Positions 1-31,609 of a stretch of DNA of 34,779 bases are shown here, piece by piece. Below the pieces are notes generated by a model, which did no database searches, was not told the DNA's origin, and worked only from the letters and a program-made list of their open reading frames with translations. Numbering within the stretch: the stretch's first letter is position 1; every line of letters begins with the position of its first letter. Source of the stretch: Candidatus Azambacteria bacterium (GTDB taxonomy: Bacteria > Patescibacteriota > Minisyncoccia > UBA10092); NCBI GenBank assembly GCA_016213445.1, contig JACRAJ010000002.1, forward strand, positions 1 through 34,779. Direction: 5' to 3'. A program made the position numbers and the translations under genes.

Positions 1-74
1 AAGCCTTCGTTTTGGAATTTTTCCTCAAGAACTTTGGCCAGCTCCATTTCGTCTTCTATAATCAACAGTTTCAT
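1..74 (-). CDS. Response regulator receiver domain protein, N-terminus only (runs off the window edge)
   Basis: Manual translation from ATG at 74: MKLLIIEDEMELAKVLEEKFQNEG, the typical receiver beta1-acidic pair (LIIEDE) followed by helix 1. Confidence 0.85.
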   Translation of the reverse strand, partial: MKLLIIEDEMELAKVLEEKFQNEG

Positions 75-197
75 AATTTATTAAATAAAGATTATTAGTA
101 AACAATAACAGTTTATCATAATTATTGCTTGTTAATCCAATATTTGCGGCATCTGGAATTATTTTAAAAAAAAATCTATAATGCACATATACATCAA

Positions 198-2721: not shown

Positions 2722-4353
2722 ATGGCAATGAGCAGGAAATATATTTTTGTTTTAATATTAATTATTGTTTTGGCGGTTTTTTTTAGATTCCGGCAGTTTA
2801 CGTCAATTCCGGCCGGCTTGTATCAGGACGAAGCGATGAACGGCTCCGATGCTTTGACTTCATTAAAATCCGGCGATTTTTCCGCTCAAGGCGGACCAGC
2901 CTCGGGCTGGAAGATTTTTTATCAAAATAATAACGGCCGGGAAGGAATGATGGTCTGGCTTGACGCGCTGGCCGTAAAATTATTCGGAACGGAACCATGG
3001 GTTTTAAGATTGTTTCCGGCAACAGCGGGAGTTTTGGCGGTTTTAGGCCTCTATTTTTTGGCATTGGAATTATTTGGCGCGGAAATCGCTTTAATTTCAA
3101 GTTTTTTTATGGCGACAAGTTTTTGGGCGGTGAATTTCAGCCGTACGGGATTTCGAGCCGGTTTAATGCCGCTTTTTTTGATTTGGTCATTTTATTTTTT
3201 GCTACGCGGCTTTAATATACGGATGTCCGACGCTCACAATAACGGGCATCGGACATTCGTATTTATGTTCGTTTTGGCGGGAATTCTGTTCGGTTTGGGA
3301 TTCTATACTTATATTTCGTTCAGGTTTGCGCCGGTGTTGGCGCTTTTAGTTTTTGGACCGGCGCTTTTAAAAAAATATAATGGCCGATTTAATCGGCAGT
3401 TATTAATCGGATTTTTATTTTTTATTTTGACGGTTTTTATCATTGCCCTTCCGATTGGATTGTATTTTCTAAAAAATCCGACAGACTTTTTTGGCCGAGC
3501 TTCCGGAGTTTCCGTATTTTCTTCGTCGTCTCCGCTTAAAGCGGCGGCTGCCAGCGTCATTAAAACCGTCGGCATGTTTAACATTGCCGGAGATTTTAAC
3601 TGGCGCCATAATTACGCCGGTTCGCCGGAATTGTTCTTTCCGGTCGGGTTGTTTTTTCTTTTGGGAATTTGGTTGAGCATTAGGCGGTTTGAGTTTAAAG
3701 ACAAGTTTTTGCTTCTTTGGCTTGGAGTTTTTTTACTGCCCAATGTTTTAACAAGCGAAGGCAACCCCCATTCTTTAAGGGCTTTGGGCGCCATGCCGGC
3801 GGCAATGATATTCGCCGGAATCGGCCTGTTTTGGCTTTATCAAAAAATTCAGGCGTATTTTGACGGCAAAATTAAAAATCCGGATTTTTTCAAATACAAA
3901 AGCCAGCTTTTAAGGTTAAAAAAAGAAACATTTTTGCTTTTAATGGTATTTTTGGTTTTTATCGGAGCTTATAATTTTAACGGATATTTCAATCTTTGGG
4001 CTTTTAATCCAAACGTTCTTTCGGCTTTTTCTCGCGACCAAGTTGAAATTGCGAATTATCTGAACAGTTTGCCGGAACAAACGGAAAAGTACGCCATTTG
4101 GGATGCAAGCGACAGAGCGACGGATAACGGGCTTCCGGTATCGGCTCAAACGGTTTATTTTTTAACGGCGAAAAAAATTAAAGTAAATTATTTAAAATCC
4201 GACGAACTTGATAAAATAAATCCCGGTGCAAATGGTTTGGTTATCGCTCCGTTATATTATAATTTGGATTTATTGCGCGATCTGAACAAACGATTTCCGC
4301 AAAGCAAAATTAATTTTATTTACATAAACACCGCCGTTGTATCGATTCAGTAA
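2722..4353 (+). CDS. ArnT/PMT-like (GT-C fold) membrane glycosyltransferase; start may be ATG 2728
   Basis: GLYQDEA acidic motif in the first loop, NNGREG, about 11 TM segments and a soluble C-terminal tail; carries palindromic inserts. Confidence 0.85.
   Translation: MAMSRKYIFVLILIIVLAVFFRFRQFTSIPAGLYQDEAMNGSDALTSLKSGDFSAQGGPASGWKIFYQNNNGREGMMVWLDALAVKLFGTEPWVLRLFPATAGVLAVLGLYFLALELFGAEIALISSFFMATSFWAVNFSRTGFRAGLMPLFLIWSFYFLLRGFNIRMSDAHNNGHRTFVFMFVLAGILFGLGFYTYISFRFAPVLALLVFGPALLKKYNGRFNRQLLIGFLFFILTVFIIALPIGLYFLKNPTDFFGRASGVSVFSSSSPLKAAAASVIKTVGMFNIAGDFNWRHNYAGSPELFFPVGLFFLLGIWLSIRRFEFKDKFLLLWLGVFLLPNVLTSEGNPHSLRALGAMPAAMIFAGIGLFWLYQKIQAYFDGKIKNPDFFKYKSQLLRLKKETFLLLMVFLVFIGAYNFNGYFNLWAFNPNVLSAFSRDQVEIANYLNSLPEQTEKYAIWDASDRATDNGLPVSAQTVYFLTAKKIKVNYLKSDELDKINPGANGLVIAPLYYNLDLLRDLNKRFPQSKINFIYINTAVVSIQ
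2881..2910 (+). repeat. 30-nt double-hairpin element, copy A (in frame, SAQGGPASGW)
   Basis: tccgct-caa-ggcgga ccagcc-tcg-ggctgg. Confidence 0.9.
3217..3262. repeat. Intragenic hairpin of the TCCGAC-core family
   Basis: atacggatgtccgacgctc-8nt-gggcatcggacattcgtat; 19-nt arms with 16 Watson-Crick pairs, 2 G-T pairs and 1 mismatch. Confidence 0.75.
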
Positions 4354-10059: not shown

Positions 10060-10089
10060 TCGGCCATAGGCTGATCCGCCTTTGGCGGA
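10060..10089 (-). repeat. 30-nt double-hairpin element, copy B (intergenic, 11 nt upstream of lysS ATG)
   Basis: Minus strand: tccgcc-aaa-ggcgga tcagcc-tat-ggccga. Confidence 0.9.
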
Positions 10090-14865: not shown

Positions 14866-16158
14866 TTAGATTTTTCCGCCAAAGGCGGATCCGCCTTTGG
14901 CGGAAAATTTTAAATTTAATAATTCCGAAATTTTTACCAGCTTCGTCTCTTTTTTATTTCTTTGTTTCAATTCAACCGAATCTTTTTCAAGAGTCTTTTG
15001 GCTAACCACCGCGCGCCAAGGAATTCCCAGCAAGTCGGCGTCGGCGAATTTCTCGCCGGCGGTTTTATCGTCGCGGTCATCGTATAATACTTCCATTCCT
15101 TTATCAATGAGTTCTTCGTGGATTTTTTCCGCTTGTTCTTTAACGGAATTTTCTTCCGCTTGCTTGGCGGCGATTTCAACGAGGTGAATCTTGAAAGGCG
15201 CTATTTCTTCCGGCCAGATTATTCCTTTGTCGTCATTATGGATTTCCACGGCGGTTCCCATCAAGCGGCCCAATCCGATGCCGTAAGAACCCATTATCAC
15301 GTATTCTTTTTTACCCTCTGAATTTATAAATTGCAAATTGAAAGCGGAAGAATATTTGGTGTCCAAAGGAAAAAGATTTCCAACTTCGATAGCTTTTTCC
15401 ATTTTAATTTCTCCCCGACATTCGGGGCATTTATCGCCTTCTTCAAGCTTGGAAATTTCCTTGTTTTCCGCGTATCCGCATTTTAAACAAACAAAAATTG
15501 TGTCTTCTCCGACTGGAGTTATCACTTGAAATTCATGGGTATGGCTTGCGGTGAAAACTCCGCCGGCCGCTATGGTGTAAACGGCCTTTAAGCCGCAGCG
15601 GTTGAAAATTTTAAAATAAGCCGCCTTTACTTTTTCATAAAAGTTTTTCAAATCTTCTTCCGAAGAATGGAAGCTGTATAAATCTTTCATTATGAATTCG
15701 CGGCCGCGCAACAGGCCCGATTTTGCCCTCGGCTCATTTCGAAATTTGGTTTGGATTTGATAAGCGGCAAACGGCAAATCTTTATATGAGTTTACGTATC
15801 GGGTGGCAATAGCCGTCAGCACTTCCTCGTGCGTCCAACCCATGACGAAGTTGGCGGTTTTTTCGTTTTTTTCCTTCGCTTCAAAACCAATAGGCACATC
15901 CCAGCGTTTGGTGGCATCCAAATATTTTTTTTCCACAAGCGCCGGCATAAACATTTCTTGTCCGCCGATGGCATTCATTTCTTCGCGGATAATATTGGCG
16001 ATTTTTTCAAGCGTTCTCCAGCCTGAAGGCAGATAAGAATAAACGCCGGCGGAATTTTTATAAACAAAACCGCCCCGTTCCAAAAGCCGGGCGTTGACGC
16101 TCGTTTCATCTTTTGGATTTTCCCGCAAAGTATGTCCGAAAAGTTGTGATTGCTTCAT
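14866..16158 (-). CDS. proS: Proline--tRNA ligase, short form without the INS editing domain
   Basis: MKQSQLF start at 16158, THEE, KFRNEPRAKSGLLRGREF, MGSYGIG, GEKFADADLLGIP. Confidence 0.95.
   Translation of the reverse strand: MKQSQLFGHTLRENPKDETSVNARLLERGGFVYKNSAGVYSYLPSGWRTLEKIANIIREEMNAIGGQEMFMPALVEKKYLDATKRWDVPIGFEAKEKNEKTANFVMGWTHEEVLTAIATRYVNSYKDLPFAAYQIQTKFRNEPRAKSGLLRGREFIMKDLYSFHSSEEDLKNFYEKVKAAYFKIFNRCGLKAVYTIAAGGVFTASHTHEFQVITPVGEDTIFVCLKCGYAENKEISKLEEGDKCPECRGEIKMEKAIEVGNLFPLDTKYSSAFNLQFINSEGKKEYVIMGSYGIGLGRLMGTAVEIHNDDKGIIWPEEIAPFKIHLVEIAAKQAEENSVKEQAEKIHEELIDKGMEVLYDDRDDKTAGEKFADADLLGIPWRAVVSQKTLEKDSVELKQRNKKETKLVKISELLNLKFSAKGGSAFGGKI
14875..14904. repeat. 30-nt double-hairpin element, copy C (in the ProS C-terminus, SAKGGSAFGG)
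   Basis: tccgcc-aaa-ggcgga tccgcc-ttt-ggcgga; with flanks it is a perfect 36-bp palindrome at 14872-14907. Confidence 0.95.
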
Positions 16159-21603: not shown

Positions 21604-22530
21604 ATGACCAGAAGATTCAGAAGGTTTATTTTTTTGATATTTACCGCGCTTTTTATAATGTGCAGTTTTGCCGCGGTTCTTTTTGCCGAAGGTTATCGGT
21701 TTGATTTCAGCGACTTTAAACTGGTAAAAACCGGCGGAATTTTCATTAAAACATCCACTGATGGGGCCAAAATATACATTAACGACAAATACATAGAATC
21801 AACCAATGGAATTTTAACCCACAGCGTTTTAATAAGCGGTCTTGCGCCAAAAAACTACAATGTTTTTGTTTATAAAGAAAATTATTATCCATGGAATAAA
21901 GTTGTTAAAGTTGAAAATGGAATGGTGTCCGAGTTGGATAGCATACTTTTATTTCCTCTGGAATTAAAGAAAAATAAAATTGCCGAATTGTCCGATCAGA
22001 CAATTTCCGAATTTGAAATAATCGACAGCGCGGTGAAAATTAAAAATAACAAAGCCAAAACGCTCAATACCTATAATTTAAATGACGGCAAGTTGCTAAC
22101 GAGCGAGAAATTCTCCGCCAAAGGCGGACCAGCCTCTGGCTGGAAAACCACCACGTCATCTCCTCAAGAAATAATTTCTCCCGATAAGAATAAAAAACTT
22201 TATGTTTTAAATAATCGGATTTGGGTTGAATATTTAAAAAATATAACGAAAGATCCCATTAAAAATGCCGGAGAAAAAGAATTGCTTGCCATTTACGAGC
22301 CGCCAATTGATTTTTTTGAATGGTTCGGGGATTCCAAACACGTAATGTGGTTTGCCGACAACGAATTAAATGTGGCCGAATTGGATAATAGAGGCGGAAA
22401 GAGAAACAGTATTAATTTTTATCTCGGCATCAATCCCCCGTTTTTTTGGGATCGCGAAAATTCCGAACTTTATTTTTTTGAAAAAAGCGCGGGAAAAAGT
22501 GTTTTATACAAAATAAGTTTCAAATCTTAA
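21604..22530 (+). CDS. Membrane-anchored PEGA domain protein with beta-propeller-like C-terminus
   Basis: TM, GYRFD, KTGGIFI, GAKIYIND, KENYYPW. ATG 21604 is preferred over GTG 21586 because of the promoter position. Confidence 0.8.
   Translation: MTRRFRRFIFLIFTALFIMCSFAAVLFAEGYRFDFSDFKLVKTGGIFIKTSTDGAKIYINDKYIESTNGILTHSVLISGLAPKNYNVFVYKENYYPWNKVVKVENGMVSELDSILLFPLELKKNKIAELSDQTISEFEIIDSAVKIKNNKAKTLNTYNLNDGKLLTSEKFSAKGGPASGWKTTTSSPQEIISPDKNKKLYVLNNRIWVEYLKNITKDPIKNAGEKELLAIYEPPIDFFEWFGDSKHVMWFADNELNVAELDNRGGKRNSINFYLGINPPFFWDRENSELYFFEKSAGKSVLYKISFKS
22114..22143 (+). repeat. 30-nt double-hairpin element, copy D (in frame, SAKGGPASGW)
   Basis: tccgcc-aaa-ggcgga ccagcc-tct-ggctgg. Confidence 0.92.
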
Positions 22531-30274: not shown

Positions 30275-30304
30275 TAATTCAGTTTAACAGAGCATCCTGC
30301 TAAA

Positions 30305-30403
30305 CACAAATCAATAGGTTTCCGACACCTATTGATTTGTGCGGGGTTTACGATAAAAATTTTAATTTAAATGAGAATTCAATAGGTGTCGGAAACCTAT
30401 TGA
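30305..30403. repeat. REPIN-like inverted doublet of 25-nt palindromes between alaS and mnmA
   Basis: tcaataggtttccgacacctattga (30311-30335) and its exact reverse complement (30379-30403); the first extends to 15-bp arms at 30305-30341. Confidence 0.9.
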
Positions 30404-30409
30404 TGTATT

Positions 30410-31609
30410 TTAAATTATAATTCCGCCGCCGAGCATTGCGCCGTTTTTATCGTAAAACACCGCGCTTTGGCCGGGCGTAATTGCTCGTTGAGGAACATCA
30501 AAAATCAGCGACATGCAACTAGCGACACGCAACATGCTTTCATTGCTTTTCTTTGTATCTTGTAGCTTGTTACTTGTCGCTATTATTGCTTGTTGCAGCG
30601 GCTGGCGATATCTGATGCGCGCTAAGCATTTCAAAGGCAATTTCGGCGCGCTTCCGGAAATCCAATTAATATCTTTTACGGTTAATTCTTTGGCAAAAAG
30701 TTTTTCATTTTCACTTTCGGCCACCCAAAGCGTGTTTGTCTTCATGTCTTTTCCGGCAACATAATAAACTTTTCCCTGTTCGCCGGGCAAACTGCCTTTT
30801 ATTCCGATTCCCTTTCTCTGCCCGATGGTATAGAAAATCACGCCGTCGTGCGCGCCGATTGTTTTTCCATCAAGCGTTTTTATCGGCCCAGAATTCTTTC
30901 CGAGCCTTTCTTTAAGAAAACCCGCGACATCTATTTCTCCGACAAAACACACGCCCTGCGAGTCAGGCTTTTCCGCCGTCGGCAAGCCGTATTTTTTTGC
31001 CAATGCCCGCACCTGCGGCTTGGTATAATCGCCTATTGGAAAAAGGCAATGTTTCAATTGCTCCTGCGTCAAAGTCCATAAAAAATACGACTGATCTTTT
31101 GCGCTATCGTGCGCGGTGACAAGCGACAAGCGACAAGCGACATGTTTTTTAATTTTATTTCTTGTCACATGTTTTTTGTCACATGTCGCCCGCACATAAT
31201 GTCCCGTGGCGATGTAATCCGCGCCGAGCGTCAATGCTTTTTTTAGAAACAAGCCGAACTTAATTTCGCGATTGCACATTACATCGGGATTCGGCGTTTC
31301 GCCTTTGGCGTATCCGGAAACCATATAGTCAACCACGGTTTTTTTATATTCGTCTTCAAAATCAAAAACGTAAAACGGGATTTTTAAAACACCGGCGGCT
31401 CTCCGGGCATCCGCCGCATCTTGTTCGGCGCAACCGGTTAAAGACCAGCCTTTCATATAAACTCCGACAACGTCGTATCCCTTGTTTTTTCCGCCAGAGG
31501 CGGATCCGCCTTTGGCGGACAACAATAAAGCGGCGACGGAACTATCCACTCCGCCCGACATTGCCATAAATATTTTTGGTTTTTTTCGGTTTATTTTTGA
31601 CATACGCAT
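30410..31609 (-). CDS. mnmA: tRNA-specific 2-thiouridylase MnmA
   Basis: AMSGGVDSSV, TPNPDVMCN, ATGHY, KDQSYFL, DSQGVCF, YTIGQR, RYRQ, AITPGQ. Confidence 0.97.
   Translation of the reverse strand: MRMSKINRKKPKIFMAMSGGVDSSVAALLLSAKGGSASGGKNKGYDVVGVYMKGWSLTGCAEQDAADARRAAGVLKIPFYVFDFEDEYKKTVVDYMVSGYAKGETPNPDVMCNREIKFGLFLKKALTLGADYIATGHYVRATCDKKHVTRNKIKKHVACRLSLVTAHDSAKDQSYFLWTLTQEQLKHCLFPIGDYTKPQVRALAKKYGLPTAEKPDSQGVCFVGEIDVAGFLKERLGKNSGPIKTLDGKTIGAHDGVIFYTIGQRKGIGIKGSLPGEQGKVYYVAGKDMKTNTLWVAESENEKLFAKELTVKDINWISGSAPKLPLKCLARIRYRQPLQQAIIATSNKLQDTKKSNESMLRVASCMSLIFDVPQRAITPGQSAVFYDKNGAMLGGGIII
30508..30580. repeat. Inverted degenerate heptamer arrays in the mnmA C-terminal domain
   Basis: gcgacat gcaacta gcgacac gcaacat -17nt- ttgtatc ttgtagc ttgttac ttgtcgc. 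Confidence 0.75.
31116..31189. repeat. Inverted heptamer arrays in mnmA after the GHY motif
   Basis: gtgacaa gcgacaa gcgacaa gcgacat -18nt- ttgtcac atgtttt ttgtcac atgtcgc. Confidence 0.85.
31490..31519 (-). repeat. 30-nt double-hairpin element, copy E (in frame in mnmA, SAKGGSASGG)
   Basis: Minus strand: tccgcc-aaa-ggcgga tccgcc-tct-ggcgga. Confidence 0.95.

Follow-up and report, generated by a model that had tools for sequence, protein, structure and literature searches.

A 30-nucleotide double hairpin inserted in frame in mnmA of a Candidatus Azambacteria genome is probably a solo copy of a miniature mobile element

The mnmA locus and its insert

The stretch of DNA analysed here, called the window (coordinates 1-34,779, + denoting the forward strand), is part of contig JACRAJ010000002.1 in the assembly GCA_016213445.1 of a Candidatus Azambacteria bacterium (G000; 426 kb, 86.6% complete). 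On the - strand at 30410..31609 lies mnmA, a 399-aa open reading frame (ORF) encoding the tRNA 2-thiouridylase MnmA, and inside it is a 30-nt insert at 31490..31519 (-) whose + strand sequence is TCCGCCAGAGGCGGATCCGCCTTTGGCGGA. Read on the coding strand, this segment gives S-A-K-G-G-S-A-S-G-G, which corresponds to residues 31-40 of the protein. It is composed of two adjacent 15-nt hairpins, each with a 6-bp stem (TCCGCC/GGCGGA) and a 3-nt loop (NNN), that together make a 30-nt near-perfect palindrome, found as inverted repeat I3 with arms 89% complementary and 0 nt between them. On the coding strand, the first unit is TCCGCC-AAA-GGCGGA (31505..31519, -) and the second one TCCGCC-TCT-GGCGGA (31490..31504, -). 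The insert is bordered upstream by the target half-site TTG (Leu30; 31520..31522, -) and downstream by AAA (Lys41; 31487..31489, -).

The host gene is otherwise intact. The protein matches PF03054 (3.4e-68), PF20259 (1.7e-22) and PF20258 (5.4e-17), the three Pfam domains that make up the MnmA architecture. In an alignment of 21 MnmA sequences, the PP-loop SGGVDS, D109, C112 and C221 are invariant, as is K41, the first residue after the insert. D109, C112 and C221, which we take to be the catalytic aspartate and the two cysteines by comparison with Escherichia coli MnmA, also align with solved MnmA structures (2hma_A, E 3.5e-82), and these structures leave a gap of exactly ten residues facing the insert. 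An AlphaFold2 model built on 21 sequences (mean pLDDT 85.1) has a strand at residues 12-16, a helix at 21-31, no regular structure at 32-45 and a strand at 46-53, with pLDDT below 50 at 35-41. The helix starts at the PP-loop, and the insert is accordingly modelled as a low-confidence loop at its far end, which, from the topology of such alpha/beta folds, would be opposite to the nucleotide-binding edge.

Filled and empty sites were compared in a set of 41 genomes made of G000 and its 40 nearest relatives, 40 of which possess MnmA. The mnmA loci of 29 relatives were fetched and, one of them (L012) being without N-terminus, 28 orthologues cover the site. The insert is present in none of the 28, and the length of the site varies among them by one residue at most. 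Same-genus MnmA proteins, which are 75-80% identical, read AALLL|KQKGYDVVG. At the DNA level, the alignment of 10 same-family orthologues shows a 30-nt gap between TTG and AAA/AAG in seven of them, a 27-nt gap in one and a 33-nt gap in two, the last three orthologues being one codon longer or shorter at the site. TTG is unchanged in the empty orthologous sites, in which the downstream half-site is AAA or AAG. No target-site duplication accompanies the insertion, and its target TTG|AAA is of the T-N|N-A type. The best explanation is that the element entered mnmA after the species split from the sampled relatives.

An earlier note on this DNA, made from the sequence alone, had described a precise ten-residue insert near the end of the helix following the ATP-binding motif of an otherwise intact MnmA, the insert-free sequence fitting the usual MnmA pattern. 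All this is borne out by the structures, the model, the orthologues and the DNA alignment, and close orthologues do not display the naturally length-variable loop that would speak for another origin. The note overlooked that these 30 nt form a near-perfect palindrome and that the same mobile repeat has further, dispersed copies, which accounts for the precision of the insertion.

MnmA contains other lineage-specific sequences. Two further segments (31116-31182 and 30520-30582) face gaps in the solved structures, but their repeat is another one: the heptamer GACAAGC is repeated 3.6 times at 31118-31142 (100% matches), and arrays of inverted partners yield the pairs I1 and I2. Thus mnmA contains repeat-derived inserts of two families. 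In the MnmA of G005 and G011 (L005 and L009), other ten-residue inserts, PSSAKASAGK and PSFAKASDGK, are located just before the C-terminal EMLGGG, L009 also has an eight-residue insert after KGWS, and several orthologues have, in the first domain, long inserts of low complexity (…KSQIPNKSKI…NCKLK). Downstream of mnmA, the intergenic region 30300-30409 gave several weak hairpin-type Rfam matches, all below the gathering score, and a metagenome contig depth of 534 versus about 68. On these two grounds it is probably another repeated hairpin element.

A dispersed family of double hairpins

The mnmA insert belongs to a repeat family. The window contains 7 occurrences of the 15-nt unit for 0.13 expected, 7 being reached by 0 of 100 shuffles, and the whole 426-kb genome contains 45 with one mismatch at most. 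Among perfect 6-3-6 hairpins genome-wide, TCCGCC is the commonest stem (33 cases), the next being CCAGCC with 7. G000 contains 23 double elements that combine TCCGCC, CCAGCC and TCAGCC stems, and across the family the variants TCCGCC, CCAGCC, TCAGCC, CCCGCC and TGCGCC were seen, each paired with its own complement while the loops vary freely. It is the stems that are conserved or changed in a compensatory manner, not the peptide.

Most of these elements are genic, 20 of the 23 being inside ORFs of at least 178 aa, and 16 host genes are supported by Pfam. They encode MnmA, the prolyl-, cysteinyl- and arginyl-tRNA synthetases (ProRS, CysRS and ArgRS), DNA polymerase I (Pol I), RuvB, the ribosomal protein L25 and a class II aldolase, as well as a class V aminotransferase of the cysteine desulfurase type, FKBP, ComEC, a PIF1-like helicase, a methyltransferase, and PMT_2, PEGA and TPR proteins. 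The window itself holds, besides the mnmA copy, one in the PMT_2 glycosyltransferase gene (2881..2910, +; TCCGCC and CCAGCC units, read SAQGGPASGW), one at the C-terminal end of the ProRS gene (14875..14904, -; residue 445 of 456, read SAKGGSAFGG) and one in the PEGA-domain protein gene (22114..22143, +; read SAKGGPASGW). An intergenic copy is located at 10060..10089, where a degenerate TCAGCC-type unit is followed by a TCCGCC unit and the longest spanning ORF has 26 aa. The class V aminotransferase copy (C1:49480-49509 in G000, locus L041) is read SARGGSASGG at residue 278; it is from cysteine desulfurases that MnmA receives its sulfur. As for the contig, the start of C1 (window 1-141) is the exact reverse complement of its end over 141 nt, either as a terminal inverted repeat or as an assembly artefact.

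The way in which the element inserts is visible at other sites. Forty copies from five relatives were compared with G000; one was skipped (short ORF), 12 had no spanning match and 27 were alignable. Seven of the alignable sites are clean ten-residue gaps in G000 and two are ten-residue gaps beside substitutions, five (RuvB, aldolase, ComEC twice and CysRS) are filled in both genomes, and the remaining 13 are variable loops in which G000 has unrelated sequence. The DNA pairs L057, L066 and L096 differ by exactly 30 nt without any duplicated flank. A T at position -2 (A at +2 on the other side) was found in 94% of 80 half-sites and in 82% of 164, for a background of 29%, and the target bases are already in place in the empty sites of mnmA and of the L057, L066 and L096 alignments. 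The family thus prefers a T-N|N-A target, into which 30 nt are inserted exactly and with no target duplication. In CysRS (loci L088 and L092 among the relatives), two insertion sites about 15 residues apart are used in different species: the first one is filled in G000 (C1:68898-68927, TCCGCC and CCAGCC units) and in G004 (two TCCGCC units), the second one, located about 15 residues upstream, in G001. This suggests that CysRS is an insertion hot spot, with replacement of the stem variant at the orthologous site.

The 30-nt pattern is found in 18 of the 41 related genomes, in all of which the reversed-pattern control gave 0. Copy numbers are patchy within the genus (0, 5, 5, 6, 13 and 27, the last in G002), and the coding-strand 30-mer of mnmA is identical to 12 of 21 copies of this same-genus G002. 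A scan of one genome per species retrieved the exact pattern in at least 126 stretches, all in metagenome-assembled genomes, whose phylum labels depend on binning. Labels among the matches listed include many lineages of the candidate phyla radiation, Kiritimatiellae, Omnitrophota, Ignavibacteriota, Planctomycetales, Gammaproteobacteria, Chloroflexota, Firmicutes-type bacteria and others. As far as sequences can tell, near-identical copies under so many phylum labels would imply frequent horizontal spread. Carriage by phages was considered and set aside, the pattern being present in 2 viral contigs only.

Metagenomes give a parallel picture. In three groundwater runs, the contig depth over 31488-31541 was 11,011, 1,201 and 2,885, for flanks at about 62-70 in the run that contains the locus, and loose contig ends diverge at 31485-31488 and 31519-31522, the very boundaries of the insert. 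High depth and loose ends together indicate that hundreds of further contexts contain the unit, bounded as in mnmA. Independent contigs break at every element copy. At mnmA, the independent assembly of the one run that contains the locus enters the element from both sides without differences, the flanking contigs reaching 21-24 nt into it and overlapping each other. No contig of the three runs joins 31489 to 31520 and so skips the 30 nt, contigs being prone to drop rare variants. No published description of the 30-nt element was found in the literature searched, subscription journals lying outside it; the two 15-mers were in no paper found, and matches to a 12-mer were, by their titles, seemingly unrelated cloning work.

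Reading frame and translation

In all 16 Pfam-supported hosts of G000, the element lies at a codon boundary and is read in the frame S-A-x-G-G-(S/P)-A-x-G-(G/W). The same frame was observed for 35 of the 40 copies from the five relatives (34/38 after dropping two in ORFs shorter than 150 aa) and, in a broad set of 82 copies from genomes under many phylum labels, of which 19 look intergenic, for 50 of the 63 within ORFs of at least 120 aa. In G000 the only clear genic exceptions are two copies read P-Q-P-x-A-G-P-P-L-A-E within a proline-rich protein, a context that suits P-P-L-A-E. The frame bias cannot stem from the target preference, since candidate target motifs in 258 long ORFs of G000 fall at codon boundaries in merely 31-49% of cases; a null of 0.55 for insertion at a codon boundary still gives P values of 7e-5 (16/16), 5e-6 (34/38) and 5e-5 (50/63).

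Loops that would encode a stop behave accordingly. In the broad set, every copy whose loop is TGA or TAG either lies between genes or sits in another frame, and a TAA-loop copy of the relatives is coded on the opposite strand as Leu. Frame bias and confinement of stop loops are unexpected if the segment were removed from the message or skipped, and they argue that the insert is translated and not bypassed. Disfavoured frames are sometimes tolerated, as indicated by the copy in the Pol I gene of G002 (L066), which is read FRQRRIRLWR, a basic frame, within a long ORF; the matching G000 site is a clean 30-nt gap. A role of the hairpins as intrinsic terminator was also considered and rejected, the T-run preceding and the A-run following them on both strands, which is the reverse order.

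Proposed explanation and alternatives

The mnmA insert is very probably a solo copy of a miniature mobile DNA element that was inserted exactly and is translated as a flexible, tolerated loop. The 30-nt double hairpin would have entered mnmA between TTG and AAA at a T-N|N-A site, with no target duplication. As it measures 30 nt and was placed at a codon boundary, it would be read Ser-Ala-Lys-Gly-Gly-Ser-Ala-Ser-Gly-Gly, ten residues predicted to link helix alpha1, which follows the PP-loop, to strand beta2 as a flexible loop that MnmA would tolerate. Across the family, genic copies in less tolerable frames appear to be removed by selection.

An ordinary lineage-specific expansion of the loop, by slippage or drift, finds some support in the hypervariable length of other regions of the MnmA family. 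It is hardly credible at a site that varies so little in 28 relatives, and for inserted DNA that is identical to copies elsewhere in G000 and to more than half of those compared in G002 and that recurs in hundreds of other metagenome contexts. An assembly artefact, in which the repeat had been wrongly threaded into mnmA, is just as hard to believe. Independent contigs do break inside the element and none spans the whole of it; on the other hand, the two flanking contigs agree with the assembly and with each other, none joins the two flanks directly, the insertion falls precisely between two codons and keeps the frame, and the same kind of insertion is found in many assemblies from other projects. 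It is also quite unlikely that the insert is kept for a useful property, as a flexible linker or interaction loop of MnmA and other hosts. Some insertions are common to several species (RuvB, aldolase, ComEC and CysRS) and hence able to last for long, yet the same DNA with the same codons recurs in proteins unrelated to each other, between genes and in fragments of tRNA, the conservation with compensatory changes concerns the stems and not the peptide, and no other sampled species has the MnmA copy.

The earlier note had left open whether the insert is tolerated or bypassed at the RNA or translation level. Tolerance is the part that stands. Removal of the 30 nt before the protein is made, either by RNA excision or by ribosomal hopping between two GGA codons, would agree with the stable fold of the mRNA segment (-25.2 kcal/mol, z -3.61) and with the presence of two identical GGA codons 15 nt apart, paired identical codons being a feature of the bypassing in phage T4 gene 60. 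It is nevertheless very unlikely given the family-wide frame bias and the stop-loop copies confined to intergenic or out-of-frame positions. Moreover, the insert contains no in-frame stop, no stop follows a take-off codon, no Rfam family matches 31490-31519 (all 9 matches are weak, below the gathering score and elsewhere), and signs of an intron, an intein or programmed bypassing were not found there. Known self-splicing introns are longer than 30 nt, and inteins are longer than 10 residues. Nothing suggests that the mRNA fold is more than an ordinary structured stretch. A further alternative concerns the mover, in the form of a REP/REPIN-type repeat mobilized by a Y1 transposase (RAYT or IS200-IS605-like). 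Single-strand transposition by Y1 enzymes would agree with the hairpin ends and with the lack of target duplication, and G000 does encode one Y1_Tnp protein of 228 aa. Y1 is however found in 10 of the 18 genomes with the element versus 12 of the 23 without it, and is absent from the four richest relatives, G002 (27 copies), G009 (9), G008 (7) and G026 (5). No such hairpin is present within the roughly 800-1000 nt scanned on either side of the G000 Y1 gene, and most copies are intragenic rather than extragenic, which makes this alternative unlikely.

A candidate for mobility

The miniature mobile element that is proposed here might be moved by another type of enzyme. In G002, two identical double hairpins (DH) enclose an intact tRNA-Asn together with an 81-aa GIY-YIG gene, each DH being located inside a tRNA T-loop fragment (GGTTC|DH|GAATCC). 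These hairpins share with the mnmA copy the TCCGCC-TCT unit and the AAA and TCT loops. Double hairpins with other stems bracket two cassettes located at tRNA-Glu, and in L125, from a genome labelled Eubacteriales, a tRNA-Ser 5' fragment, hairpins and a GIY-YIG gene are followed by an intact tRNA-Ser. Among the 80 nearest metagenomic relatives of the three bracketed nucleases, 8 are accompanied by a double hairpin that belongs to this stem family and that in 7 of the 8 ends 11-23 nt upstream of the nuclease start codon; the hairpin is present in 4 of 8 nuclease loci at 50% identity or more versus 4 of 72 below.

The nuclease link is therefore real for one cassette sub-family, while a causal role in mobility is unproven and somewhat doubtful. 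Mobility could possibly be ensured in trans by a small GIY-YIG nuclease cassette that is located at tRNA genes and has the same hairpins at its border, which is our best, though tentative, guess. More doubtful still is a wider scheme, according to which the double hairpin would be the non-autonomous solo form of an undescribed bacterial mobile element whose autonomous form would be a GIY-YIG cassette homing into conserved tRNA loops. In this scheme, the cassette would carry a replacement tRNA, the nuclease would open T-N|N-A sites and the hairpin would be copied into the break without duplication. The near-identity of tRNA loops throughout bacteria would let the system cross phylum boundaries, and solo hairpins would pepper essential genes with ten-residue loops.

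Several observations weigh against these proposals. Concerning the mnmA insert as a translated mobile element, the frame bias is not absolute, 5 of the 40 copies in relatives and 13 of the 63 genic copies of the broad set being in other frames; a minority insert-free allele is compatible with the contig-level data; and translation of the insert, like the persistence of a working MnmA, is inferred. Concerning the nuclease, hairpins accompany only 8 of the 80 relatives mentioned above, G000 and G004 (6 copies) have no GIY-YIG match, and the sole match in G009 is about 400 aa long. No double hairpin was found near 20 further small GIY-YIG genes, so that small GIY-YIG loci with a double hairpin total 3 of 30, which does not exceed the G000 background of 20 of 304 pieces (Fisher P 0.34). 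GIY-YIG genes in general were rejected as partners on this ground, the linkage being confined to one sub-family. In a broad sample, a GIY-YIG-like ORF was present within 1.5 kb of the element at only 4 of 80 loci and a tRNA at 3 of 80. Hairpins beside nucleases could also be further insertions into favourable T-N|N-A loop sites.

In parallel, G000 is without any GIY-YIG domain, even that of the approximately 400-aa class of most relatives, which from its size we guess to be UvrC-like; this may reflect an assembly gap. No tRNA-Asn gene was called in the G000 assembly. At the very end of contig C2 (C2:279857-280096; locus L056:458-697), a tRNA-Asn is interrupted in its anticodon loop by a group I intron (RF00028, 84.3 bits, E 6e-22). 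The contig stops within the T-arm of this tRNA, and the left (upstream) flank of the locus matches the flank of the G002 cassette.

Comparison with known systems

Judged by its behaviour, the closest analogue is the Rickettsia palindromic element (RPE). RPEs are described, in the available part of the source, as repeats of about 150 bp that form ten families and were reported in Rickettsia (PMC10969869). Like the double hairpins, they are palindromic selfish repeats found in frame in unrelated housekeeping genes, and their peptides are translated and thought to be compatible with the fold of the host protein. By contrast, RPEs are characterized by a family-specific conserved peptide besides their length, and they are reported in one genus (PMC10969869), while the present element has 30 nt and 10 residues, consists of two minimal hairpins and is found under many phylum labels. 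PARCELs are also palindromic coding repeats that are horizontally distributed among diverse microbes, but they are presented in the text at hand as intragenic tandem repeat modules of surface proteins (PMC2996958), and not as single 30-nt insertions in housekeeping enzymes.

Another resemblance is with mitochondrial repeats, namely the double-hairpin elements of Allomyces, hairpin-forming repeats and the GC clusters of yeast, which are short GC-rich hairpins in AT-rich compact genomes. As in the present family, their copy numbers differ patchily among close species, and insertions sometimes fall in rRNA and protein genes. The Allomyces elements are said, in the part of the report available, to be without flanking duplications (PMC2800124). 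For yeast GC clusters, the corresponding text mentions putative target-site duplications, which are not found here, and proposes intron-encoded endonucleases as helpers (PMC4478555). All of these are organellar, unlike the element in mnmA.

REP, BIME and REPIN sequences are, from the accessible text, GC-rich palindromes of 20-40 nt with many copies, often paired (PMC3733652), a description that would also suit the double hairpins. However, REPs are extragenic by definition and tied to RAYT, while the present copies are mostly genic and Y1 does not track them, and the GTAG or CGTC tags given for REPs in that text (PMC3733652) contrast with ends that read TCCG.. here. A miniature inverted-repeat transposable element has terminal inverted repeats and a target-site duplication, whereas here the whole element is an inverted repeat and no flanking duplication is seen. 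Finally, the putative bacterial nucleases of the tRNA-Asn, tRNA-Glu and tRNA-Ser cassettes recall SegB of phage T4, a free-standing GIY-YIG homing endonuclease encoded among tRNA genes; a miniature hairpin repeat dispersed through host genes is unmentioned in the available part of that report (PMC2330249).

Biological significance

The analysis brings a clean filled/empty case in mnmA, a target-phase null for the frame bias, a depth signature in metagenomes, and tests of the nuclease link with positive as well as negative outcomes. A puzzling clean insertion in an essential enzyme is explained as the footprint of selfish DNA. With 30 nt and no target duplication, the element would be among the smallest mobile elements that we know of. 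Very small genomes tolerate such elements in core genes, including those of aminoacyl-tRNA synthetases, DNA polymerase I, RuvB, L25, aldolase, and MnmA along with cysteine desulfurase. In practice, the inserts disturb alignments, gene models and short-k-mer assemblies.

The question of mobility is still described as unsettled for mitochondrial hairpin repeats in the available parts of the sources (PMC2800124, PMC4478555). If the link with a tRNA-homing GIY-YIG nuclease is true, it would provide a testable mechanism for the movement of a hairpin mini-element. Should the more doubtful scheme of an autonomous cassette with solo hairpins also be true, these elements would be a continuing source of protein-length variation in small genomes.

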